Below are positions 3,581 to 61,803 of a DNA stretch of 64,000 nt, piece by piece. This DNA comes from Octopus vulgaris (Eukaryota). The stretch is from the NCBI GenBank assembly GCA_951406725.2, contig OX597824.1:87668001-87732000 (forward strand), written 5' to 3'. Position numbers and translations under genes: made by a program. How positions within the stretch are numbered: the first letter of the stretch is position 1; each line of letters starts with the position of its first letter. Under the pieces are notes generated by a model that worked only from the letters and a program-made list of their open reading frames with translations, did not search any database and was not told the origin of the DNA.

Positions 3581-5520
3581 GGCGCAGGAGTGGCTGTGTG
3601 GTAAGGAGCTTGCTTACCAATCACGTGGTTCCGGGTTCAGTCCCACTGCGTGGCACCTTGGGCAAGTGTCTTCTACTATAGCCTTGTGAGTGGATTTGGT
3701 AGATGGAAACTGAAAGAAGCCTATCGTATATATATATCATCATCATCATCGTTTAACGTCCGCTTTCCGCGCTAGCACGGGTTGGACGGTTCGACCGGGT
3801 CTGGGAAGCCAGGGGCCGCTCCAGGCTCCAGTCTGAATCTGGCAGAGTTTCTACGGCTGGATGCCCTTCCTAATGCCAACCACTCCGTGAGTGGATTGGG
3901 TGCTTTTTACGTGCCACCTGCACAGGGGCCGGAGGGTCCGGCATCGGTCACGATCGGTTCGAGCATTTTAACATGTCAGCGGCACGGGGGCAACGAGGTC
4001 CGGGGTACTTTGGGGATCGGGGTACTTTGGGGATCCAGGGTACTTTGGGGATCCGGGGTACTTAGAATGGGTAGGGGGTATGTGGAATTGCTGCAGAAAG
4101 CAGCCCGGGTCTTTGTAGTCACAGCATATCTCCAGAGATCTCGGTCCTTCGCCATTGCCTCAGTGATGCCCAATGCTCTGAGGTCATGCTTGACCACCTC
4201 ATCCCATGTCTTCCTGGGTCTACCTCTCCCCCTGATACCTTCAACTGTTTGGGAGTGGCACTTCTTCACACATCTCTCTTCATCCATCCGCAGCACATGA
4301 CCATACCATCGCAAGCGTCGCTCTTGCACACCACATCTGATGCTTCTTATATCCAGCATTTCTCTCAGGATGCTTACACTCTGTCTTGCGTGCACACTGA
4401 CACTACACATCCAGCGGATCATGCTAGCTTCATTTCTTTCAAGTCTACGCATGTCTTCTGCAGTCACAGCCCAAGTTTCATTACCGTGAAGCATGGCAGT
4501 TCGCACACATGCATCATACAATCTACCTTTTGCTCTGAGGGAGAGACCTTTTGTTGCCAGTAGGGGTAGGAGCTTTCTGAACTTTGCCCAGGCTATTCGT
4601 ATTCTAGTGGTGATACTCTCTGTGCATCCACCTCCGCTACTAACTTGGTCACCCAGGTAACGGAAACTATCAACTACTTCTAGTTTCTCTCCCTGGAGTG
4701 TGATGGAATCTGTTTTCTGAGTGTCTGTTGTGTCTATTGTCCCTGTGCATCTGCCGCACATGAAAGCTATCTTATCTGTTAATTTCCCTTTAATGTTGCT
4801 GCACCTCTTATGTGTCCATAACTTACATTGGGTGCATCTTATGGAGTTTCTACCTGTACCTTTCCTACAGGTTGAGCAGGGCCACCTACCCGAGAGGATG
4901 TGTGCTGAGTACCTCTTGCTGCTTACTAATACTTTGGTCTTTGCTACATTTATTCTAAGGCCCTTTGATTCCAACCCTTGCTTCCACACCCGAAATTTCT
5001 CTTCTAGTTCCGGTAGTGATTCTGCTATGAGAGCTAGGTCATCGGCATAGAGGAGCTCCCAGGGGCATCCTGTTTTGAATTCCTCTGTTATTGCCTGAAG
5101 GACTATGATGAATAAAAGGGGACTGAGGGCTGAGCCCTGGTGCACACCTACTTCTACCCGGAATTCTTCACTATATTCGTTGCCAATCCTAACCTTGCTG
5201 ACAGCCTCTCTGTATAGAGCCTGTACAGACCTTATTAGCCATTCTTCAATCTCCAGTTTCCGCATCGACCACCAGATAAGGGATACGTATATATATGTAT
5301 GTATGTGTGTGTGTATATGTTTGTCTGTGTTTGTCCCCTCAACATCACTGGACAACTAGTGTGTTTACGTCCCCCGTAACTTAGCGGTTTGGTAAAAGAG
5401 ACCAATAGAATAAGTACTGGGCTTACAAAGATAAAGTCCTGGTGTTGATTTGCTCGACTAAAAGGTGGTGTTCCAGCATGGCCACAGTCAAATGACTGAA
5501 ACAACTAAAAGAGTAAAAGA
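3581..5520 (+). mobile_element. SINE family A split by an RTE LINE insertion
   Basis: Head 3581-3735 and tail ~5289-5520 are contiguous halves of the consensus, interrupted at the central (TA)n. Confidence 0.85.
3737..5283 (-). mobile_element. 5'-truncated RTE-clade LINE (RT C-terminal half, 3' UTR, (GAT)n tail)
   Basis: ORF 3976-5355 has GVHQGSALSPLLF, LLYADD, FRYLG, HGNETW, RLRWYGHV and RGRGRPRKTW motifs; its first ~24 codons come from the host SINE. Confidence 0.93.
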
Positions 5521-6297: not shown

Positions 6298-6600
6298 AAA
6301 TAGTTATGTAGTTACCACAACAGCAATGATTTGGAAGAAAACACAAAGGTTTGTTGAGCGCTGATTGATTGTTTGCATCGAAAATCCCTTGTTTTGTCCT
6401 CATTGAAGTTTGCCACTAAGTGTGTAGGAACAAGGAAAAGAAAGGGTTCAAGGCTCACACAAAATATGTTTGTTTTTTGTTTGTGTGTCTGTGTGAAAAC
6501 TGAACTTCAGCTTAGGTGCTAAAAGTGACAGTAAAGTGTCTGAAATCACAGAAGGAGCTGATGTTATTTTACAGGTGTTATGAATAAATACCTGTGTTAA

Positions 6601-9600
6601 CCCTTTTGTTACTAACCCAGCTGAAACCGGCTCTGGTTCTGTAGTACAAATGTCTTGTTTTCATAAGTTCTGAATTAAAATTTCCCACCACACCTTAGTC
6701 ACAATTTATGTTCCTAACACTAGCTGAATGATAACTTAAGTTATTTTACTAAATTCTTTGTTATATTTAAAGTAATTGAAAGAAACACAGAGCATCTCAA
6801 ATGGCTGAAACCGGCTCTGGCTCTGTGGTACAAATGTCTTGTTTTCATAAGTTCTGAATTAAAATCTTCCACCACACCTTAGTCACAATTTATGTTCCTA
6901 ACACTAGCTGAATGATAACTTAAGTTATTTTACTAAATTCTTTGTTATATTTAAAGTAATTGAAAGAAACAGAAATGCACAGACTAGCATCTCAAATGGC
7001 TGAAACCGGCTCTGGCTCTGTGGTACAAATGTCTTGTTTTCATAAGTTCTGAATTAAAATTTCCCACCACACCTTAGTCACAATTTATGTTCCTAACACT
7101 AGCTGAATGATAACTTAAGTTATTTTACTAAATTCTTTGTTATATTTAAAGTAATTGAAAGAAACACAAGCATCTCAAATGGCTGAAACCGGCTCTGGCT
7201 CTGTGGTACAAATGTCTTGTTTTCATAAGTTCTGAATTAAAATTTCCCACCACACCTTAGTCACAATTTATGTTCCTAACACTAGCTGAATGATAACTTA
7301 AGTTATTTTACTAAATTCTTTGTTATATTTAAAGTAATTGAAAGAAACACAAGCATCTCAAATGGCTGAAACCGGCTCTGGCTCTGTGGTACAAATGTCT
7401 TGTTTTCATAAGTTCTGAATTAAAATTTCCCACCACACCTTAGTCACAATTTATGTTCCTAACACTAGCTGAATGATAACTTAAGTTATTTTACTAAATT
7501 CTTTGTTATATTTAAAGTAATTGAAAGAAACACAAGCATCTCAAATGGCTGAAACCGGCTCTGGCTCTGTGGTACAAATGTCTTGTTTTCATAAGTTCTG
7601 AATTAAAATTTCCCACCACACCTTAGTCACAATTTATGTTCCTAACACTAGCTGAATGATAACTTAAGTTATTTTACTAAATTCTTTGTTATATTTAAAG
7701 TAATTGAAAGAAACACAAGCATCTCAAATGGCTGAAACCGGCTCTGGCTCTGTGGTACAAATGTCTTGTTTTCATAAGTTCTGAATTAAAATTTCCCACC
7801 ACACCTTAGTCACAATTTATGTTCCTAACACTAGCTGAATGATAACTTAAGTTATTTTACTAAATTCTTTGTTATATTTAAAGTAATTGAAAGAAACACA
7901 GCATCTCAAATGGCTGAAACCGGCTCTGGCTCTGTGGTACAAATGTCTTGTTTTCATAAGTTCTGAATTAAAATTTCCCACCACACCTTAGTCACAATTT
8001 ATGTTCCTAACACTAGCTGAATGATAACTTAAGTTATTTTACTAAATTCTTTGTTATATTTAAAGTAATTGAAAGAAACACAGAGCATCTCAAATGGCTG
8101 AAACCGGCTCTGGCTCTGTGGTACAAATGTCTTGTTTTCATAAGTTCTGAATTAAAATTTCCCACCACACCTTAGTCACAATTTATGTTCCTAACACTAG
8201 CTGAATGATAACTTAAGTTATTTTACTAAATTCTTTGTTATATTTAAAGTAATTGAAAGAAACACAGCATCTCAAATGGCTGAAACCGGCTCTGGCTCTG
8301 TGGTACAAATGTCTTGTTTTCATAAGTTCTGAATTAAAATTTCCCACCACACCTTAGTCACAATTTATGTTCCTAATACTAGCTGAATGATAACTTAAGT
8401 TATTTTACTAAATTCTTTGTTATATTTAAAGTAATTGAAAGAAACACAGAGCATCTCAAATGGCTGAAACCGGCTCTGGCTCTGTGGTACAAATGTCTTG
8501 TTTTCATAAGTTCTGAATTAAAATTTCCCACCACACCTTAGTCACAATTTATGTTCCTAACACTAGCTGAATGATAACTAAGTTATTTTACTAAATTCTT
8601 TGTTATATTTAAAGTAATTGAAAGAAACACAGAGCATCTCAAATGGCTGAAACCGGCTCTGGCTCTGTGGTACAAATGTCTTGTTTTCATAAGTTCTGAA
8701 TTAAAATTTCCCACCACACCTTAGTCACAATTTATGTTCCTAACACTAGCTGAATGATAACTTAAGTTATTTTACTAAATTCTTTGTTATATTTAAAGTA
8801 ATTGAAAGAAACACAGAGCATCTCAAATGGCTGAAACCGGCTCTGGCTCTGTGGTACAAATGTCTTGTTTTCATAAGTTCTGAATTAAAATTTCCCACCA
8901 CACCTTAGTCACAATTTATGTTCCTAACACTAGCTGAATGATAACTTAAGTTATTTTACTAAATTCTTTGTTATATTTAAAGTAATTGAAAGAAACACAA
9001 GCATCTCAAATGGCTGAAACCGGCTCTGGCTCTGTGGTACAAATGTCTTGTTTTCATAAGTTCTGAATTAAAATTTCCCACCACACCTTAGTCACAATTT
9101 ATGTTCCTAACACTAGCTGAATGATAACTTAAGTTATTTTACTAAATTCTTTGTTATATTTAAAGTAATTGAAAGAAACACAGAGCATCTCAAATGGCTG
9201 AAACCGGCTCTGGCTCTGTGGTACAAATGTCTTGTTTTCATAAGTTCTGAATTAAAATTTCCCACCACACCTTAGTCACAATTTATGTTCCTAACACTAG
9301 CTGAATGATAACTTAAGTTATTTTACTAAATTCTTTGTTATATTTAAAGTAATTGAAAGAAACACAGCATCTCAAATGGCTGAAACCGGCTCTGGCTCTG
9401 TGGTACAAATGTCTTGTTTTCATAAGTTCTGAATTAAAATTTCCCACCAAACCTTAGTCACAATTTATGTTCCTAACACTAGCTGAATGATAACTTAAGT
9501 TATTTTACTAAATTCTTTGTTATATTTAAAGTAATTGAAAGAAACACAAGCATCTCAAATGGCTGAAACCGGCTCTGGCTCTGTGGTACAAATGTCTTGT

Positions 9601-11659
9601 TTTCATAAGTTCTGAATTAAAATTTCCCACCACACCTTAGTCACAATTTATGTTCCTAACACTAGCTGAATGATAACTTAAGTTATTTTACTAAATTCTT
9701 TGTTATATTTAAAGTAATTGAAAGAAACACAGAGCATCTCAAATGGCTGAAACCGGCTCTGGCTCTGTGGTACAAATGTCTTGTTTTCATAAGTTCTGAA
9801 TTAAAATTTCCCACCACACCTTAGTCACAATTTATGTTCCTAACACTAGCTGAATGATAACTTAAGTTATTTTACTAAATTCTTTGTTATATTTAAAGTA
9901 ATTGAAAGAAACACAGAGCATCTCAAATGGCTGAAACCGGCTCTGGCTCTGTGGTACAAATGTCTTGTTTTCATAAGTTCTGAATTAAAATTTCCACCAC
10001 ACCTTAGTCACAATTTATGTTCCTAACACTAGCTGAATGATAACACAAGCATCTCAAATGGCTGAAACTTCGGTCTGAGTACAAATGTCTTGTTTTCATA
10101 AGTTTGAATAAATCTTCCACCAAACCTTAGTCACAATTTATGTTTAAAGTAATTGAAAGAAACACTCTCAAATGGCTGAAACCGGCTCTGGCTCTGTGGT
10201 ACAAATGTCTTGTTTTCATAAGTTCTGAATTAAAATTTCCCACCACACCTTAGTCACAATTTATGTTCCTAACACTAGCTGAATGATAACTTAAGTTATT
10301 TTACTAAATTCTTTGTTATATTTAAAGTAATTGAAAGAAACACCTAGCATCTCAAATGGCTGAAACCGGCTCTGGCTCTGTGGTACAAATGTCTTGTTTT
10401 CATAAGTTCTGAATTAAAATTTCCCACCACACCTTAGTCACAATTTATGTTCCTAACACTAGCTGAATGATAACTTAAGTTATTTTACTAAATTCTTTGT
10501 TATATTTAAAGTAATTGAAAGAAACACAAGCATCTCAAATGGCTGAAACCGGCTCTGGCTCTGTGGTACAAATGTCTTGTTTTCATAAGTTCTGAATTAA
10601 AATTTCCCACCACACCTTAGTCACAATTTATGTTCCTAACACTAGCTGAATGATAACTTAAGTTATTTTACTAAATTCTTTGTTATATTTAAAGTAATTG
10701 AAAGAAACACAGAGCATCTCAAATGGCTGAAACCGGCTCTGGCTCTGTGGTACAAATGTCTTGTTTTCATAAGTTCTGAATTAAAATTTCCCACCACACC
10801 TTAGTCACAATTTATGTTCCTAACACTAGCTGAATGATAACTTAAGTTATTTTACTAAATTCTTTGTTATATTTAAAGTAATTGAAAGAAACACCTAGCA
10901 TCTCAAATGGCTGAAACCGGCTCTGGCTCTGTGGTACAAATGTCTTGTTTTCATAAGTTCTGAATTAAAATTTCCCACCACACCTTAGTCACAATTTATG
11001 TTCCTAACACTAGCTGAATGATAACTTAAGTTATTTTACTAAATTCTTTGTTATATTTAAAGTAATTGAAAGAAACACAGAGCATCTCAAATGGCTGAAA
11101 CCGGCTCTGGCTCTGTGGTACAAATGTCTTGTTTTCATAAGTTCTGAATTAAAATTTCCCACCACACCTTAGTCACAATTTATGTTCCTAACACTAGCTG
11201 AATGATAACTTAAGTTATTTTACTAAATTCTTTGTTATATTTAAAGTAATTGAAAGAAACACAGAGCATCTCAAATGGCTGAAACCGGTTCTGGTTCTGT
11301 GGTACAAATGTCTTGTTTTCATAAGTTCTGAATTAAAATTTCCCACCACACCTTAGTCACAATTTATGTTCCTAACACTAGCTGAATGATAACTTAAGTT
11401 ATTTTACTAAATTCTTTGTTATATTTAAAGTAATTGAAAGAAACACAGAGCATCTCAAATGGCTGAAACCGGTTCTGGTTCTGTAGTACAAATGTCTTGT
11501 TTTCATAAGTTTTGAATTAAGATCTTCCACCAAACTTTAGTCACAATTTATGTTCCTAACACTAGCTGAATGATAACCAAGTTATTTTACTAAATTCTTT
11601 GTTATATTTAAAGTAATTGAAAGAAACACAGAGCATCTCAAAATAGAGTAACGAAAGGG
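6601..11659. repeat. Tandem array of about 28 units of ~183 bp inside a piggyBac-type MITE
   Basis: TTAA 6597-6600, then CCCTTTTGTTAC; ends GTAACGAAAGGG, then TTAA 11660-11663; units counted by eye from the recurring GCTGAAAC. Confidence 0.93.
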
Positions 11660-11767
11660 TTAAAGCTGAAATAGTTCACTGAAATTTGAATGGGATGAAT
11701 TCATTCACCTCCGCCAACAATGACGGCAAGTTTAATAAGGTAAACTAACAGATTTTGAAAATGCTCA

Positions 11768-17235: not shown

Positions 17236-17581
17236 TACTAAAGAATTGCTGTTAGCTGAGCTATTGGGGTCCCAGGTTTCCAGTTAAAGAACCCACACTT
17301 CACATCCACTCACCAGCCCTGCACTGCATCCCAGGCAGCACCGTTTCTTTTACCTTGTGTTGTATTCTCTGTACTTTTGGCTCCGCATTCCTGTCTTTCT
17401 TTCTTCAACTTATTGTTGTACTCTGTCTCCACTTTTACCATTTTCCAATAGGTTGTAGTGCACCTGAGCACTGTACAACAAACTCATTATTATTAAACTC
17501 ATTGAGAACCCTAGTGGCCAATTATTGTAAGAAAGATAATCTTGGTGGGATTAGAAGTTTGTGTATTATTATTATTATTAA

Positions 17582-17778
17582 CCCTTTTGTTACCGTATTT
17601 CTGTTGAGATGCTCTGCGTTTCTTTCAATTGCTTTAAATATAACAAAGAATTTAGTAAAATAACTTGGTTATCATTAAACAAGTGTTAGGAACATAAATT
17701 GTGACTAAAGTTTGGTGGAAGATTTTAATTCAAAACTTATGAAAACAAGACATTTTCACTCAGCCAGGGGCGGTTGGG
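17582..17778 (-). mobile_element. Monomeric piggyBac-type MITE, same family as the 6.6-11.7 kb array
   Basis: TTAA-CCCTTTTGTTAC start, body is the reverse complement of one array unit, ends GGG-TTAA with an eroded TIR. Confidence 0.85.
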
Positions 17779-17834
17779 TTAATGTGGCACCATCACTAGT
17801 GCCTTCTACATGGCACCAACATGAATGCTTTTAA

Positions 17835-17965
17835 CCCTTTTGTTACCATATTTCTATTGAGATTGTGACTAAGGTTTGGTGGAAGATTTTAATTCAAAGC
17901 TTATGAAAACAAGACATTTGTACTTAGAGCCAGAGCCCGTTTCAGCTGGGTTGGTAACAAAAGGG
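17835..17965 (-). mobile_element. Internally deleted piggyBac-type MITE
   Basis: Perfect TIRs CCCTTTTGTTAC and GTAACAAAAGGG, with TTAA at 17831-17834 and 17966-17969. Confidence 0.9.
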
Positions 17966-19538
17966 TTAAATTTTATGTAATTACTAGCCTTGATAGCATG
18001 CTTCTTTCCCAAATAAATGTCCATGGAAATCTTTCATGACAATGTCAAAATTTGGATTAAAAGGTGTTCTGAGAGAGGGCCTGCTAAAATTTAGGTGCAT
18101 CTTATAAGCATTTGTGCCTTATAAACCATCAGATGCATAAATCCTGTTGGTTTAGTCCACTTAATTATTATTATCAACCACAATAAGCAGCAGAATGAGC
18201 TCACAGAATTAGCAGTTCTTAAATGAGGTTGCAGCTGTTTAAATTTTCTGTTGGGTTACTGGAAAACAAACAAATATTATCTGTAATTGTTGTTTGATCC
18301 CAGGTAACTTGACTGAGCATGCATATTATCAAAGGCAATCCATCAGCGATTGTCCAACCCATTTCTGCCAAACTGTGGATTACATTATTCAACGTGTTCT
18401 GTCTTTTAAGATGATAGGGTAGGATTTGAAGGAGATTTTGTTGCTGTTTCTAGCAAGCCAACCGACCATGAATGGGATCCTTTGTTAGCTCATGTCTAGG
18501 GACCCTATGTCAGCTGTGGTTGTATATGTAGGGTCCCCAGTGCATTGTTTTGCCTGGTGGCCTATAAAGCTGTTAAGACAGCTTTGTGCTATCAGAAATA
18601 TAATATTGGAAACTTTATAGGTTAGTGGTGTAGGATAGAAGTGGGATCCTTGTAAGTTGAGTCTGTGACCCACATTTGATTTCAGAAAATTGTTTTACCT
18701 CTCTCTCTTTCATCAATTGGGTCACTGAAAAAATAGACAAATAGAAAGTTGCAATTATTGTTTCTCTGAATCGTTGGGCTTCATTCCTGCCTGGAGAAGA
18801 CAACAGGAAATGATTTTAGCATAGGTCTTTCCAAAAATACCATGACATTATAAGCAAGTTACATCAAAAACCAGATAGACTTCTAACAGAAAAATGTTAT
18901 TTATGAAATCAATATATGTAACAAATGCATGTTATATAAAAATCAATTCTATGTGTGTACCATATGTTACATTAGTCGATATATTTGTAGTACATGTGTA
19001 GCTGTTATTGGTGTGGTAGCTGTTGTTGTAGATCTTATGGAGTTGACCCAAACCCAGTCAATTCTCCATAAACAATATTATCTGACAATGAAGTGAGATC
19101 AAAGAATATTTCTTATGTCCATTACGCACAGGTCCTAAACCTTTGGAATATCATGATTTTAGAATATCTTGCTGTGCTGATCCGCCTTTGAACTTTCTAA
19201 GCCATTCAATGTTCTCAACGGTAGCCATACAACCATGATTTTAGGGGAAAGATAATCGTCACATCTAAATCACGAAATATTTAACTTCTTCGCTTTAAAG
19301 TTGAAAGGAATTTGCGAGGGGACACGACATGACTTAACCATCACAATGTACAGGTTAAATTACTAACGAGAAGCTTTATTAGCTTATGGGTCTGTTGTAT
19401 ATATGAATATCTATACTTTTATATAATATATGGTTATATGTATGCATGAATGTAAGGATACACAGACACACATATTTCGCATTATAGGCACAAATATGAG
19501 ACAAAATATCATTTATATTAAAATATTAGCCACCAGTT

Positions 19539-25528: not shown

Positions 25529-25945
25529 GGCGGCAAGCTGGCAGAATCGTTAGCATACCGGGCGAAATGCTTAGCGGTATTTCGTCTGCCGTTACGTTCT
25601 CAGTTCAAATTCCGCCAAGGCCGACTTTGCCTTTCATCCTTTCGGGGTCGATTAATTGAATACCAGTTACGCACTGGGGTTGATATAATCGACTGAATCC
25701 TTTAGTCTGTCCTTGTTTGTTCCCTCTGTGTTTAGCCCCTTGTGGGTAGTAAAGAAATAGGTATGTCGTCTGCCGTTACATTCTGAGTTCAAATTCCGCC
25801 GAGGTCAACTTTGCCTTTCATCCTTTCGGGGTCGATTAATTGAGTACCAGTTATGCACTGGTGTTGATGTAATCGACTTGATCCGTTTGTCTGTCCTTAT
25901 TTGTCCCCTCTGTGTTTAGCCCCTTGTGGGTAGTAAAGAAATAGG
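25529..25945 (+). mobile_element. SINE family B dimer
   Basis: Full copy followed by a 5'-truncated copy. Confidence 0.85.
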
Positions 25946-27318
25946 TATATGTGTATGTATCTGTTACACAAACACACTTACATCTGCACCCACACAATCA
26001 TTTGTACACAACATGTGTGTGTGTGTATGTCTGTGTGTGTATGTATTATAGATTCTTCCATTGTTAGGTAACGGATGAGCATCTTTCAGTTTCTTTCTTA
26101 ACAACCACACAGATGATTTGTTTATAGTGATCAAATGTTTGTTTTCACATAATCTCACTCTCACCATCAAACTGACATTACCTGTACAGTTAACCTTTTC
26201 AGAGCCGTACCCCAGCACATGGCTGTAGTCCAATGACTGAAACACAGATAAGAGTTAGAGATATTGTATATGATGGTATAATAATTGCCCTAATTTTGGC
26301 ACCAGGCAAATCAATAAGGAAAAGGTCCATAGAAACCAGAGCGCTGGCAGGCAGCTATACCTAAAGATAACTGCAATCAGTTACCAAGGATCAAAACAAA
26401 TGGAAATCTCTTTATGTCTTATGCTTCACATGGATTTAAAGAATTATGAAGATGGTCAATTAAATTCATCCCATCAAAAAGAAGGACAAAGTTGACCTTA
26501 GCAGGGCTTGAACCCAGAATGAAAGGGGTTGTAACTAAATACTGTAAGGCATTTGTCCAACACTCTAATGGTTCAACCAATCCGTAACAAAGGTTGTGTT
26601 AGCTTTTATCTTTTTAACTTTTACTTCGTTCAGTCATTAGAATGTGGCCATGCTGGGGCACTCCCTTGAAGAATTCTGGTCAAACAAATCAACATAAGAA
26701 AAAATATATATATAAATAAAAAATATAGGTGGAAATTTTACCTGTGAGTGTGTTAAATTATAAGGCACAAAAAGAAAATTACTCTCCCCAGACACAACAG
26801 AATATGCTTCAACACACGAACTCATATAAAGAATCTTGCAAACCAAATCCAAAAACGAAATCTACATACTTATTCCATCAATCTTTTTTGCTGAACCACT
26901 AAGTTATGGGGGGGGGGGGTGTAAACACATTAGTACCAGTTGTCAAGCAGTGGTGGTCAGCTTATAATGCTGAATTCATTTCCATCCTTAGTGTTGTTTG
27001 GAAAAGGATGGAGTATTGTGGAGATGAAGCTTTCAAGTTTAATCCTTCTTATGCAATGGTTTATCTCCCCCCCCCCCACAAGCACACATGTAGACATGCA
27101 GTCGGTCAATCAGTCATTCACTCCATGTAGACATTCATTAAGAACTAATTAATACTTGTTTGTTATGTTTTGTCTTTGAAGTTTGCATCGGTGAAATTTG
27201 TCTTCTTGTAATTAATTACAATTAAAACAAGCCTATACTTTGACTTGAACCTGGGACTTGTTTTCCAATCGGGAAAATCTTTCAAAACGAACCGTCAGAA
27301 TTTTGGTAAATTAAGTGA

Positions 27319-40850: not shown

Positions 40851-41006
40851 CCCTAAACTGAGGTGGTGAGTAGTATTGAGCGAAGTGGCTTTGCGGCAGG
40901 TGTTAAGAGGTTAAAGTATGATAAAGGGACAGGAACAGGTGTCTTTTTGTAGGGGGGAATCTCTATACTGTATTGTTATATCTTGTCACATAAATTATGT
41001 TAAGTA

Positions 41007-41570
41007 GGCACAAAAGTGGCTGTGTGGTGAGTAGCTTGCTTACCAACCACATGGTCCCAGGTTCAGTCTCATTGTGTGACACCTTGGGCAGGTGTCTTCT
41101 ACTATAGCCTCGGGCCGACCAAAGCCTTGTGAGTGGATTTGGTTGACGGAAACTGAAAGAAGCCCATCATATATATATAAATTATGTTAAGTAGGCATAG
41201 GAGTGGCTGTGTGGTAAGTAGCTTGCTTACCAACCACATGGTCTCAGGTTCAGTCCCAATGTGTGGCATCTTGGGCAAGTGTCTTCTACTATAGCCTCGG
41301 GCCGACCAAAGCCTTGTGAGTGGATTTGGTAGATGGAAACTGAAAGAAGCCCGTCGTATATATGTGTGTATGTGTGTGTATATGTTTGTGTGTCTGTTTG
41401 TCCCCTCAACATCACTTGATAACTGATGCTGGTGTGTTTACGTCCCCGTAATTTAGTGGTTTGGCAAAAGAGACCGATAGAATATGTACTAGGCTTACAA
41501 AGAATAAGGTCTGGGGTCGATTTGCTCAACTAAGGGCGGTGCTCCAGCATGGCCACAAAGTAAAAGCGTA
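41007..41570 (+). mobile_element. SINE family A head duplicated ahead of a full copy
   Basis: ATAAATTATGTTAAGTAGGCA precedes both heads. Confidence 0.8.
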
Positions 41571-45194: not shown

Positions 45195-45975
45195 AACATA
45201 CACACACACACACACCATATATGCATACATATATAAATATATACATGAACATGTATATATGTATGCACATACATTTATATATGTGTATAGGAATGTATAT
45301 ATATATATATATATATCTGAATACATGCATGTGTATATGTGTGTGTATATATATATATATATATTTATAAATATAGCTTTATGTATGTATAGGTATGTGT
45401 GTGTATGTATGTTTATGTGTGTGCATATATAGATATATACATACATATCTACACACACACATATATATGTACACACACACACACACAAAAATGCACACCA
45501 TATATGCATACATATATAAATATATACATGTGTATATGTATGCACATACATATATGTGTATAGGAATGTATATATATATCTGAATACATGCATGTGTATG
45601 TGTGTGTATATATATATATATATGTTTATAAATATAGCTTTATGTATGTATAGGTATGTGTGTGTGTATGTTTGTGTGTGTGCATATATATATGTATGTG
45701 TGTGTATATATAGATATACATACATATCTACACACACACACACACATATATGTACACACACACAAATGCACACCATATATGCATACATATATAAATATAT
45801 ACATGCATATATATGTGTGTATAGGAATGTATATATATGAATGTGTGTATATATATGTTTATAAATATAGCTATATGTATGTATAGGCATGTTTGTGTGT
45901 GTGTGTGTACATATATAGATATATACATACATACATATCTACACACACACACACATATATACACACACATGTATA
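45195..45975. repeat. Higher-order repeat of about three 200-290 bp compound (TA/CA/TG) units
   Basis: Recurring landmarks CACCATATATGCATAC, TATAGGAATG and TTTATAAATATAGCT. Confidence 0.75.
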
Positions 45976-56508: not shown

Positions 56509-56838
56509 GGAAGAAGGAGGGGGGGAACAATGTAAAACATGAGATATTGAAGAATAGCAGGGAAGCAACTGAGAAATGAGGAATATAATAAAAGTAGGAG
56601 TGGAAGGAATAGCAGAGTAGGAGGCATTTTGAGGCAAGAGAGGAGACGAAAGAGAATGTGTTTAGAAACGAAAGGAAATAAAAAAAGAGAGAAAAAGAGA
56701 GAGAGAGAGAGAAAGAGAGACGCAAAGAAATGTAAAAGAGAAATGACGAAACGATTAACTTGTGCAAAGATGCAGGTCTGTGCTGTCGTGTAGAGGCCTG
56801 GAAAGAGTGACGCAAATAAAACTATAGCTGCACCAAGA

Positions 56839-58236
56839 ATGGCACTAAAAGAAAGGAGAGGAGGAGGCTTCTGGGGCTGCGACACATTCGGTCTTCGTCA
56901 CCTGCGTCCTTTATTATTAAATGTAGCCTCTGAAAACCAAACAATTAACGCGGTTGGCACTAATCTCTCAAATGCAGCCCATAACATGAACTTCGATGAC
57001 CAGAAGCCGACATCTATTGCGTATCGAGAAGACGCATCTTCAGATTCCGCAAGCATTAGTCACATTGTCTGTTCCAGAGTAACAACCGTCTCCGGAAATT
57101 CAATTGGAGAAGCAGAAGAAGAAGAAGCTACCACATTGACAAGTTGCAATAACGGTAGTGGCAGCAGAAGCAGTGGCAGAACAACCGGGAGTAACAGTGG
57201 CATCAATAATGGTAAAGTGGTTAAGTGTAGTAAAAGTTGCGATAGCGGTGTGTGTACGAGTTCTTTGTCGAACCCAGCCCATGAGAAAATAGTGTTGGCT
57301 CTGCCATCGTTGTCTCCGATATCACTGAGACCGACTTTGGAATCGGCGACACAACAACAACAAGAAGAAGAAGAAACGGTAAACAAGCGTCGTTCTTCCT
57401 CTGTGGTCGGGTTGTGGAGGCGTGGCGGAGACAGAGCAGATCTGAGAAATGTTATTACTAATGCTGGCAGCCAGCGCCGACCATCGAAGAAAACCACACG
57501 CGATCCAGTGAGGGAATTGAGGAAAACGGCCAGAAGCCGAAGAAGACTAGAGGAGGATATTAATTCTAGTAAGGTGATCATTCATAGAGCCCCGAGCAGC
57601 AGCAGCAGCGGCAGCGGCAGCAGCAGTAACAGCAGCAGCAGCTGGGCAGGAAGTCGGAGAAACATCAGCAGCAGCAGCAGCAGTGTCAGAGCCAAGATAC
57701 TATTAGGAGGAAGTGGAAGACGTCTAGGTGTGTCCCCTTCGTCTGATCCCGGTTGCAGGAACTCAAACGATCTACGCTACCATTACTATTGCCATCCCAA
57801 CACATCGCATCTGACGGTCAACCGATGTGGTAGCTGCTGTGGTAGTACGAACAGCAGCAGTAGTCATTGTGGAAATACAGTCACCAAGCACAACATTAGT
57901 AGTTACCTTAGTGACGATCTGAGTAGTAGCAGTAGTAGTAGTAGTAGTAGCAGCGGTAGTAGTAGTTGTAGCAACAGCAGTAGCTACGGCATCACCAGTA
58001 ACAGTAGTAGTGGTAGCAGCAGTAGTAGCAACAACAACAGCAGCAGTAACAGTAACAATAGTAGCAGCAGTAGCAGTAGGAGTAGCAGTAACAGTCCACA
58101 AGTCATTTACCACCACCACCACCACCACCAGCCGCCGCCGCCGCCGCCGCCGCCTCCACCGCCGCCTCCACTGTCACACAGTTGCCACAGAATTCTCCCC
58201 CGTCCCCTTCAGCAATACCAACAACAGCAGCAGCAA

Positions 58237-58274
<38 letters not shown>

Positions 58275-61200
58275 TCAGCAGCAACCTGAGAGACAGGATA
58301 CCACTTTTGCTACTCATCAGAAATTACCAACGACCCACCACGGTCGCCACCACCACCACCACCACCAACAACGCTGCTATTACTATTCCAATTCTAATTC
58401 CAGCAGTGTTGTGGGATCTCCACAGTTTACGGTGAAGGTTGTACCACTGCCCAAGGAGGAGCTTTCCCCCAGACTGCAGCAGCAGCAGCAGAACACAACA
58501 GAACCCCCTCAACTGCAGTTACTACACCCTGACAACCACAGTCACAAATACCATCATCACCATCAACATCATCAACATCATCACCAACAGCAACAGCAGC
58601 AGCAGCAGCATAATCATCATAATCATCACCAACATCAACATCATCAGCAGCATAATCACCATCATCATCGTCGTCAGCACACTTTCCCGTCGCGGTTCCA
58701 CCTCCCGTCTCCCCCGCAACCACTGCCACTGAGGTCGTTCGTCTCTTCCTCTCCCGTGTACGTGCAGCAGCTCATTCCAGCGGCGAGGGGTGAGCCCGGC
58801 AGCGCCAGAGAAGGGTGTTTCAACTGTAGCAGGAGAAGCAAAGGGAACAGCGATTCGCCACCGCAGCCGCCGCCACAGAGTAGTAGTATCATCCAACAAC
58901 GGCACCACAGCCCGGCCATTGCAGCCGACCAACGGCGTATTTCTGCGCCGCCCGATCCACAAAATGGCGACCGAGGAGGTGTCGGCGACGTTAACGACCA
59001 ACACCTCAGCCTCTTCCGTCAACGCTACAACCAGCAACAACAAATCCGACACTTTACTTTTCCCCAATATCAATCGCAGGAACACTACAACTGTAAACAC
59101 CAACAACAACTGCAACAACTACAGCTACAACAGCAGCAACAACAACAGCAACAGCATCTACAGCAACAGCAGCAACAACAACGACCCTACAACCTTTGCC
59201 ATAGCAGAGAGGAAGGAATCGAAGAAGACAGGTTTGAAGAAGGAATCGCTTACGAAAGAGACGGACGAAGAACCTATCATTTTGTTAACGCTGGTGCTGT
59301 CAGCTATTGCCGAAGGAATAACACAGCTAGCAGCTGCGGAACTGCTACAATTATTAACACACTACCAGCATCGACAACAGCCACAAAATCGGAAAATATT
59401 ACAGCCACTATCCCAATTCATTCTGTACGTCCAGCGGTCAACACTACCAGTCCGCCTGGAACCAGAGCCGTCTCCATCAGCACAAACATCACCACGGCCG
59501 GCCATCAGTGTAACAACCCTTCTGAAGGTTTTCCTTTGCACTTTTTGTCGTCATCATCGCCACCACTTGCTTCCAACAGTAGCACCACCATCGCCGTTAG
59601 TAGCACCACCTTCACAGACGTTACCACCTCCACAACAAACACCATCAACCATGTCGGTGCTTACAACAACAACAACGATTTGACCGGTCCTCCTCTGTTG
59701 CATCACCACCATCTGCATGTTCCACACCAGCCACAGCATTTCTATCACCATCAGCATCATATTCACCAGCTTCCACCTCATCGATTGCATCAACAACACT
59801 CCGCTCCTCACTTGGCGCACCAGACTTGCTGTCGTGCCCATTCTCACCAACCCAAATCGACATTGCCCACTGTCCGTTCCGGTGCCATAGTGAACAATAA
59901 TAATAGTGTTGCTAACGCCACTAACTTAACAGGTAAAAGTAAAGGCTCGGTCAGTGGCCACAGCATCACAGCAGCCCTCATCGCTGCTGCTGCCACTGCA
60001 ACCGGCACTACCACTGCTACTACTGCTATTTCTAATTTTAATCCGAAAGTCTCTCACACGAACACTGCATCCAACAAGAGCAGCAGCGTCAGTGTGTTCG
60101 ATGGCTCTGCCGATGTCCCTCCAGAATGCAACAACAGCGAAGTGATCTCCAGCCATGACACGCACTTCAACTGCTCCACCATAAGTAACAACGTGAGCAG
60201 CATACCGTCGGTGTTGTCGTCGAACCACCACCACCACCACCACCACCACCATCATCACCAGCATCAACAGCAACAGCAGCAACAACACCATCACAGTTCT
60301 ACTACGACGACGACGACAACATCCTCGAATCACCGACGGCTTTTTGGTGGCGGGGTGGGCACCAACAACAACAATGCTTTATCTCCTGAATCGGCTATGA
60401 AGCAATATATGAACAAGCTCAGTGCGTTTGAGCATCACGAGATCTTCAACTACCCCCAGGTTTATTTTGTTGGCCCCACGGCGAAGAAACGGCAAGGTAT
60501 TGTCGGTGGCAACAACAACAACGGATACGACGACGAAAACGGATCTTACCTGCACGTCCCCCACGATCACATCGCTTATCGCTATGAAGTTCTGAAAATA
60601 ATCGGCAAGGGCAGCTTTGGACAAGTGGTTAAGGCTTACGACCACAAAGCACAACAACATGTTGCTTTGAAAATGGTACGCAACGAAAAAAGGTTCCACC
60701 GACAGGCACAGGAAGAGATTCGAATCTTGGAACATTTGAAAAAACAAGATCGAGACAACAGCATGAATATTGTCCACATGTTGGAACATTTCACGTTTCG
60801 CAACCACATATGTATCACATTCGAATTGCTAAGCATGAATCTATATGAGTTAATCAAGAAGAACAAATTTCAAGGATTTACATTACAGCTTGTTCGCAAG
60901 TTCGCGCATTCAATCTTACAATGTTTAGACTCTCTTCATAACAACAGCATCATCCACTGCGACCTTAAACCTGAAAATATTTTGCTGAAACAACAAGGCC
61001 GCAGTGGGATCAAAGTCATAGACTTTGGTTCTAGTTGCTATGAACACCAGAGGATCTATACATATATCCAGTCTCGCTTCTATCGGGCTCCTGAGGTCAT
61101 CCTTGGTGGTAAGTACGGTATGCCTATTGATATATGGAGCCTCGGGTGTATCCTGGCCGAGCTTCTTACGGGCTACCCATTATTTCCAGGTGAAGATGAA

Positions 61201-61803
61201 GGGGACCAGCTAGCATGTATCATAGAAATGTTGGGAATGCCCCCGCAAAAACTGTTAGACCATTCTAAAAGAGCTCGTAATTTTATTAGCTCCAAAGGAT
61301 TTCCAAGATACTGTACAGTAAGTACCCTCCCGGACGGGTCGAGTGTCATCAACGGTGGCAGGTCGCGACGTGGTAAACCTCGAGGTTCTCCGGGAAGCAA
61401 GGAGATCATGGCTGCTTTAAAAGGTTGTGATGATCCCCTATTTTTAGACTTTATGCGTCGGTGTTTGGAATGGGATCCAAATTCTCGGATGACTCCCAGC
61501 CAGGCTCTTCGTCACGCCTGGCTGCGCAGGAGGCTGCCGAAACCACCACCGAATGAAAACAGAGACACTAACAGCATGTCAACCACTATAGCAACGATTG
61601 GTAACAACGGTACCAATACAAATGTTGGTACTTTGAATCGTAGAAACTCTACGGGAAACAATAGAAACGGTGCCGTGCCAAAACTTGCAAACGGCACCAG
61701 TTCAGGGAACAAAACTAGGCAAATCATTCCGGACGATGTGGTCATCACATCGTCCCAGTTTAATTCGCGGACAAAACTGCCCCAAATAGGATCCACTTTA
61801 TAA
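56839..61803 (+). CDS. DYRK2: Dual-specificity tyrosine-phosphorylation-regulated kinase, class II (DYRK2/3-like), 1654 aa
   Basis: NAPA region ([10 protein letters not shown]...[12 protein letters not shown]), DH box (YDDENGSY), kinase domain 60583-61524 with [22 protein letters not shown] and the YTY activation loop (61057-61065); in-frame TAG upstream at 56791; true start codon uncertain. Confidence 0.95.

Follow-up and report, generated by a model that had tools for sequence, protein, structure and literature searches.

How does a short, non-autonomous DNA transposon become a satellite? The question is raised by a stretch of 64,000 nucleotides of Octopus vulgaris DNA (C11:87,668,001-87,732,000; "the window"), in which positions 6597..11663 are occupied by a tandem array built inside one miniature inverted-repeat transposable element (MITE) of the piggyBac type. 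A search of the genome (2.8 Gb, 227 contigs) revealed 31 multimers of this MITE with a single head-to-tail junction, all of them within 7 Mb, and the array was larger than any of the others. Its features, in window coordinates, were as follows.

6597..6600 (+): left TTAA target-site duplication, read from the sequence
6601..6613 (+): left terminal inverted repeat (TIR), 13 bp, CCCTTTTGTTACT, read from the sequence
6620..6803 (+): unit 1, with array-specific alleles (CACACC; an extra T in ACTTAAG)
6792..6812 (+): head-to-tail junction, first occurrence, GCATCTCAAA joined to TGGCTGAAACC, common to 31 loci in C11:82.7-89.7 Mb
6804..11461 (+): units 2-27, internal, near-identical
8097..8462 (+): units 9-10; unit 9 ends in ACACAGCA and unit 10 has C>T at 8377
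9930..10174 (+): units 19-20, both truncated and both marked by 1-nt deletions, several in all
11462..11642 (+): unit 28, with a consensus-like body
11647..11659 (-): right TIR, 13 bp, reverse complement CCCTTTCGTTACT
11660..11663 (+): right TTAA target-site duplication, read from the sequence

The assembly contained 28 head-to-tail units, 26 of full size (182-195 bp in the register used; the last was 202 bp there, right end included) and two truncated (units 19 and 20, 131 and 114 bp), inside a single pair of TIRs and TTAA sites, as the first-pass annotation of this DNA had described. The TIRs were complementary at 11/12 positions, or 12/13 with one base added, and a 4-bp subterminal deletion with respect to the monomer adjoined the right one. 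The repeat unit corresponded approximately to positions 22-203 of the 229-bp monomer (both TTAAs counted); the annotation had equated it with the MITE body minus the TIRs, which was right, a few subterminal bases being missing as well. Thirteen sequence types were present among the 28 units, mean substitution among 23 intact internal units was 0.31%, and the TRF scores over the array were 6611 and 2835. Units 19-20 were either a case of real decay or an unpolished long-read stretch. The array had the homogeneous, head-to-tail organization of satellite DNA but in size and setting was unlike a long heterochromatic block, being 5 kb long, in ordinary sequence and 45 kb from a kinase gene. No frame of at least 110 aa crossed it, and the MITE/array sequence had no match in Rfam, which left a structured RNA reading without support.

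The family to which the element belongs was short, non-coding and abundant: approximately 14,000 copies on all chromosomes (6,087 exact matches to a 34-mer that was present exactly in 11/26 unselected monomers). Both ends of the array element terminated in CCCT, in agreement with the CC[C/T]T motif in short TIRs which, in the part of PMC2872659 available, marks piggyBac-derived MITEs. Thirty of the 119 matches to the piggyBac transposase domain (PF13843) were examined, and seven of these loci had the MITE TIR at one or both ends, two of them (L079, 2,635 bp, and L086, 2,529 bp) at both. The left 22 nt of the array element, TTAA included, were identical to the left end of L086, and the right ends of MITE and transposase elements were homologous over ~100 bp. 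Judged from its sequence, the array element is a piggyBac MITE, as first proposed, because transposase-coding elements of the genome carry the same ends. A T2-MITE/Kolobok identity (Xmix type) was rejected, the ends being CCCT and not AGGRR. Helentron/DINE-1-like elements of the DTC84 type lack true TIRs, in place of which they have subterminal inverted repeats together with a microsatellite, and they use an AA target; this identity was rejected too, as true TIRs adjoin TTAA here and the element lacks an internal microsatellite.

No intact transposase was found among the seven TIR-matched copies (30 of 119 matches examined): their longest stop-free frame, 494 aa, stopped short of the 581 aa of L071, an intact-looking piggyBac whose TIR differs from that of the MITE after CCCTTT. 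L071 (953-3575) and L072 (477-3098) were 2.6-kb piggyBac copies with 19-bp matching ends (TIR CCCTTTAGTGTTCA) and long open frames of 581 and 554 aa, 98% identical, which indicates a young family. The MITE copies themselves were 3-4% from their consensus; with the rate given in the accessible text of PMC13282606, this corresponds to a family age of some 9-11 million years, a rough figure distorted by recombination. All four haplotypes were present at several site pairs among unselected monomers; copies therefore recombine, and monomers are mosaics. Family copies were frequently less than 1 kb from one another, and often (L032, L034, L035, L040, L048) adjoined the TTAA end of a sister MITE starting CCCTTTAG. 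A cluster at C20:4.24-4.69 Mb, a local burst or a segmental duplication, contained 7 of 91 exact monomer 54-mer matches in 0.45 Mb.

The junction between 183-bp units was confined to one region. All the matches found in the whole-genome search (44/44 exact, 63/63 near) were in C11:82.72-89.71 Mb, and none in the remaining 99.7% of the genome; in contrast, the monomer 54-mer had its 91 matches on 28 contigs and none in this interval. Most of the 31 junction loci (23) were dimers, some of them truncated; the others were 3 trimers, 2 tetramers, a 6-mer, an 8-mer and the 28-mer. Fourteen loci were in plus and 17 in minus orientation, 20 were bounded on either side by a TIR and TTAA, and no pair was alike in both 600-bp flanks. 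One junction at many loci with unrelated flanks is the pattern of the Rsp-like/1.688 type, and the TIR-less 183-bp junction is of a single origin. The first-pass annotation had suggested a search for other arrays with the same junction: it is present at 31 loci in 7 Mb, the window locus included, and was not born at the window locus alone. No extra junction copy overlooked by the search pattern was detected in 400 kb of C11:87.05-87.51 Mb, a stretch with 11 full monomer-size copies. Multimers were as diverged (3.2% and 3.6%) as monomers (3.9%); therefore, junction spread was old, and only the expansion of the 28-mer was recent. At least 90% of the spreading events were local (95% bound).

Two further junctions of the MITE were also patchy. 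A 48-bp host spacer joining two whole MITE copies had 33 matches genome-wide: 20 on C11 (18 of them in 83.05-88.82 Mb), 9 at four C19 loci and 3 at two C23 loci, so that 32/33 fell in three patches, the remaining one not adjoining a MITE. One composite of this kind was located in the window:

17578..17969 (-): decayed composite of two MITE copies and the 48-bp spacer, member of the second locally confined junction type

A 23-bp spacer between two copies had 1,904 matches genome-wide. Among the 100 matches listed, all 10 loci that C1 contributed over its first 87 Mb were within 4.26-6.76 Mb, an interval which also contained 26 of the 100 family matches listed; the two counts are not independent. 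Zero-spacer dimers, which can arise repeatedly and independently by double insertion, served as the control and were scattered (12 loci on 8 contigs). Longer arrays of the family were also observed: ~16 whole copies with the 23-bp spacer and a 252-bp period at L059 (C27:32,752,650-32,756,642), with similar arrays on C2 near 6.99 Mb; a 277-bp-period array with the 48-bp spacer at L192-L197 (C19:44,371,129-44,372,541); and a zero-spacer array with a 225-bp period at L253-L256 (C3:165,493,330-165,494,044).

The alleles at the inner and outer ends of these composites bear on how the junctions spread. Partial units and internal array members were dropped before counting, and "far" monomers, chosen by similarity, were kept separate from unselected ones; 26 of the 33 matches were examined for the 48-bp spacer (19 and 20 units kept) and 40 of the 100 listed for the 23-bp spacer (30 and 26 units kept). 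At the outer ends of 183-bp multimers, both common types occurred on each side, the left A-type in 9/28 and the right b-type in 6/26, frequencies close to those of solitary monomers (4/21 and 6/21). A clonal founder would have a single left and a single right end; the presence of both types in multimers therefore favours copying into resident elements. A polymorphic site 10 bp from the junction was nearly fixed: 5/30 were derived, compared with 15/29 at the corresponding position of the first unit (p 0.006). Founder alleles were found at 17/19 and 18/20 inner ends of 48-bp-spacer composites, but only at 9/19 and 8/18 equivalent outer ends (conservative p 0.03 each), and a private G was present in 16/19 inner right ends vs. 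1/19 outer right ends. These allele gradients, too, favour copying into resident elements. First and last units had 33 derived alleles in common, vs. 13.5 +/- 3.1 expected by chance. In-place duplication of each resident monomer was rejected as the main source of multimers, as first and last units of a locus differed by 6.6%, compared with 7.4% between loci.

Growth of the window copy left marks of its own. Twenty-four of the 27 matches to the array haplotype were in the array, and the other three had the extra T only. Unit 1 carried this haplotype and differed from the internal units by 1.2%; unit 28 did not carry it and differed by 5.8%. The restriction of the haplotype to one locus, together with the likeness of unit 1 and the unlikeness of unit 28 to the internal units, supports in-place unequal exchange, one of the two routes to satellite birth which the annotation had put forward, the other being rolling-circle amplification. 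Units 27 and 28 had two alleles in common, the trace that unequal exchange starting at a dimer or trimer would leave, and unit 28 probably represents the second half of the dimer from which the array arose. Expansion to 28 units was likely recent and in place. Transposition of the whole array was rejected, as the assembly did not show its haplotype at any second locus; the suggestion that the array might still be mobile was likewise unsupported, given this absence, the right subterminal deletion and the seven TIR-matched transposases (30 loci examined), none of them intact.

A derivative of the array was encountered in raw reads from another sample (S14, run X22; cover 0.69-fold, provided that every read is of host origin), searched with unit 1 plus 100 bp of flank. 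A 102-bp tandem (6790 back to 6689) was present in 114/115 reads, at ~108-fold depth, corresponding to approximately 150-250 units. It had no indels with respect to unit 1, a C>T at 6718, and the private alleles of the array; the C>T matched window unit 10 and the new junction bases matched the end of unit 9, the marks of both units being present in the tandem. The 102-bp junction was absent from the assembly. From these alleles, the tandem is likely an allelic derivative of the array; the array lineage is real and unstable, and 28 is the count of the assembly.

What has to be accounted for, then, are direct observations: family identity, one junction, its confinement, unrelated flanks, mixed outer ends and the recent homogeneity of the array. 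We consider it somewhat more probable than not that the main route was homology-directed copying of the junction into nearby resident copies, accompanied by some whole-element hops. An internal duplication during the family burst would have produced a dimer whose 183-bp unit lacks the TIRs. Where a monomer close by suffered a break, the break might then be repaired off the dimer by synthesis-dependent strand annealing, or, alternatively, a 183-bp circle looped out of the dimer might recombine into the monomer; both would yield a new dimer, and the converted monomer would keep its own ends and TTAA site. Donor dimers would be found within a few Mb of the monomers they convert. It is likely that some dimers also moved TIR-to-TIR, at a time when there was still an active transposase to match. 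Any dimer may expand or contract, which would give the 2-, 3-, 4-, 6-, 8- and 28-mers and the 102-bp derivative in another sample, with unequal exchange at the window locus itself likely raising that copy to 28 units.

Several results weigh against copying as the main route. C7T, a left-TIR variant 3 bp in, was present in 6/26 multimers (five clear cases, L031 being an alignment ambiguity, at a site chosen post hoc) and in 0/80 monomers; it had 77 exact matches genome-wide, and all 4 on C11 were multimer left ends. Joined in this way to the junction, C7T makes it likely that some dimers moved whole, as in transposition. A site 29 bp upstream of the junction was unfixed (11/31). The inner/outer contrast for the 23-bp spacer had the same direction as for the 48-bp spacer but was not significant (conservative p 0.5), and inner TIRs of trimers could be the source of the outer variation. 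Sequence distance did not grow with genomic distance among 25 loci (Mantel, rho 0.06, p 0.29), and stepwise spread along the chromosome was rejected with this test. No flank-bearing read or contig was found in four runs, so that none showed an orthologous site either empty or monomeric; contigs of organisms B and D contained the family but neither the 183-bp joint nor a flank-bearing piece, and were uninformative. The X22 tandem was linked to the window locus by alleles only, and no 183-bp array units were found among the X22 reads (X21 gave 0 reads and was uninformative).

The strongest competitor is pure local hopping, in which a founder dimer was moved TIR-to-TIR by piggyBac transposase to ~30 TTAA sites within a few Mb, its alleles being scrambled afterwards by short-tract gene conversion, and the array later grew in place. 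We regard this as possible but clearly less probable than copying. Co-inheritance of C7T with the junction (5-6/26 loci, up to 4.4 Mb apart) and TTAA at both ends of 20/31 loci speak for it, as does the equal divergence of multimers and monomers, which would date the multimers to the active period. The 7-Mb span is also in keeping with the local interval, 5-15 Mb, given for Sleeping Beauty in the accessible part of PMC3016246, where local hopping is quoted as 30-80%. However, hopping needs near-complete replacement of the alleles 13 and 25 bp in from the outer ends, though the inner ends of 48-bp-spacer composites remained fixed at the corresponding positions, and it needs more than 90% local jumps from a class for which the available text of PMC3878927 reports little or no local hopping. 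With at least 90% of events local, the present case is above the quoted Sleeping Beauty range and unexpected for piggyBac, as far as these two partial sources go.

The remaining explanations have far less in their favour. A 28-mer inflated by assembly, in which a faulty long read lengthened a dimer or short multimer and polishing then made the units alike, is improbable. It would explain the likeness of units 19-20 to unpolished read, the concentration of variation at one dinucleotide-like site and the lack of 183-bp array reads in two other samples, where ~14-28 were expected (an estimate from the 0.69-fold cover, X21 being uninformative); but 6- and 8-mers are present nearby, the private alleles, including the single-unit variant of unit 10, recur at ~108-fold in independent raw reads, and polishing would draw units toward the abundant consensus, not toward locus-unique alleles. 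Segmental duplication of one multimer to many nearby places, or many independent origins of the junction, is more improbable still. One pair of loci has 259 bp downstream in common, a stretch consisting of the 48-bp spacer and another MITE copy rather than host flank, and the flank comparison, with 0 pairs alike on both sides, contradicts duplication. Against independent origins, the junction has microhomology of a few bases at most, and recurrence would leave the 0 matches in the other 99.7% of the genome unexplained.

Arrays inside TTAA MITEs are already known from Xenopus, corals and clams; what is new is a regional, junction-tagged series. The Xenopus satellite Xstir is an internal segment of the TTAA-targeting T2-MITE Xmix, in tandem between one TIR pair (PMC6004289, in part), and the present array is like it in this internal amplification. 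Xmix, in the same source, has AGGRR (Kolobok-type) ends, whereas the present element has CCC ends in common with piggyBac transposase elements, a unit of approximately the whole body and a junction limited to one 7-Mb region. Coral CMITEs are also piggyBac-derived, with CC[C/T]T ends and tandem arrays, some with a common spacer, comparable to the arrays with 252-bp and 277-bp periods described above. In contrast to the TIR-less 183-bp unit, their arrays are of full-size elements and are ascribed to slippage; the available text is without genome positions and reports no regional confinement or interlocus junction sharing (PMC2872659). A parallel in pattern is that of the Rsp-like/1.688 repeats on the Drosophila simulans X, in which one junction is present at many loci with later intralocus expansion. 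Gene conversion between loci, or the reintegration of circles, has been proposed as the means of its spread, with an abundant resident repeat as the seed. That system, as presented in the part available, involves two satellites over a whole chromosome, and the present one a single DNA transposon family in Mb patches, with transposition as a competing explanation (PMC7403614). Drosophila transposon dimers formed by double insertion (hobo 16-mer) likewise seed copy-number expansion, but they are whole-element dimers of independent origins, comparable to the 12 zero-spacer loci and unlike the TIR-less junction of single origin (PMC5932611, in part). MITE ends also act as a cassette for internal repeats in the clam MITE DTC84 (PMC3879986, in part). 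Engineered Sleeping Beauty shows distance dependence (PMC13607698, in part). No report of a Mb-confined MITE junction or of the present family was found in the literature searched, with subscription papers mostly outside the search; the repeat library of PMC13282606 may include the consensus.

Other features of the window were a single 1,669-aa stop-free frame at 56794-61803 (+), in which a protein kinase domain (PF00069, residues 1264-1577) follows a long low-complexity part and which we take from its motifs to be DYRK2-like; a 459-aa frame at 3976-5355 (-), a piece of a long interspersed nuclear element in which part of a reverse transcriptase (PF00078) was matched and, weakly, PHD; and two-copy tandem duplications at 25576-25948, 40990-41363 and 45306-45838, which resembled short interspersed nuclear elements or low-complexity sequence and had periods of 184, 187 and 261 bp.

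As a rule, satellite birth from a transposon has to be reconstructed from its end products. A single genome here offers the complete series: monomer, dimer, 3-8-mer and 28-mer, with a likely allelic 102-bp derivative in another sample, all of it tagged by unique junctions, so that their spread can be mapped. The confinement to 7 Mb, together with the two other patchy junctions, offers a natural measure of the reach of repeat copying in an animal germline, and orthologous sites could separate local hopping from ectopic recombination directly. If the junctions were copied between neighbouring family members, as is likely, they would be natural tracers of satellite seeding. As a tentative generalization, for which the odds are somewhat against us, tandem junctions of a dead DNA transposon may behave as replicators, invading resident copies by homology without transposase, over a radius of a few Mb with rare long jumps, each invaded copy seeding a fast-changing satellite; if this were true, each junction would map the reach of the ectopic homology search in the germline.

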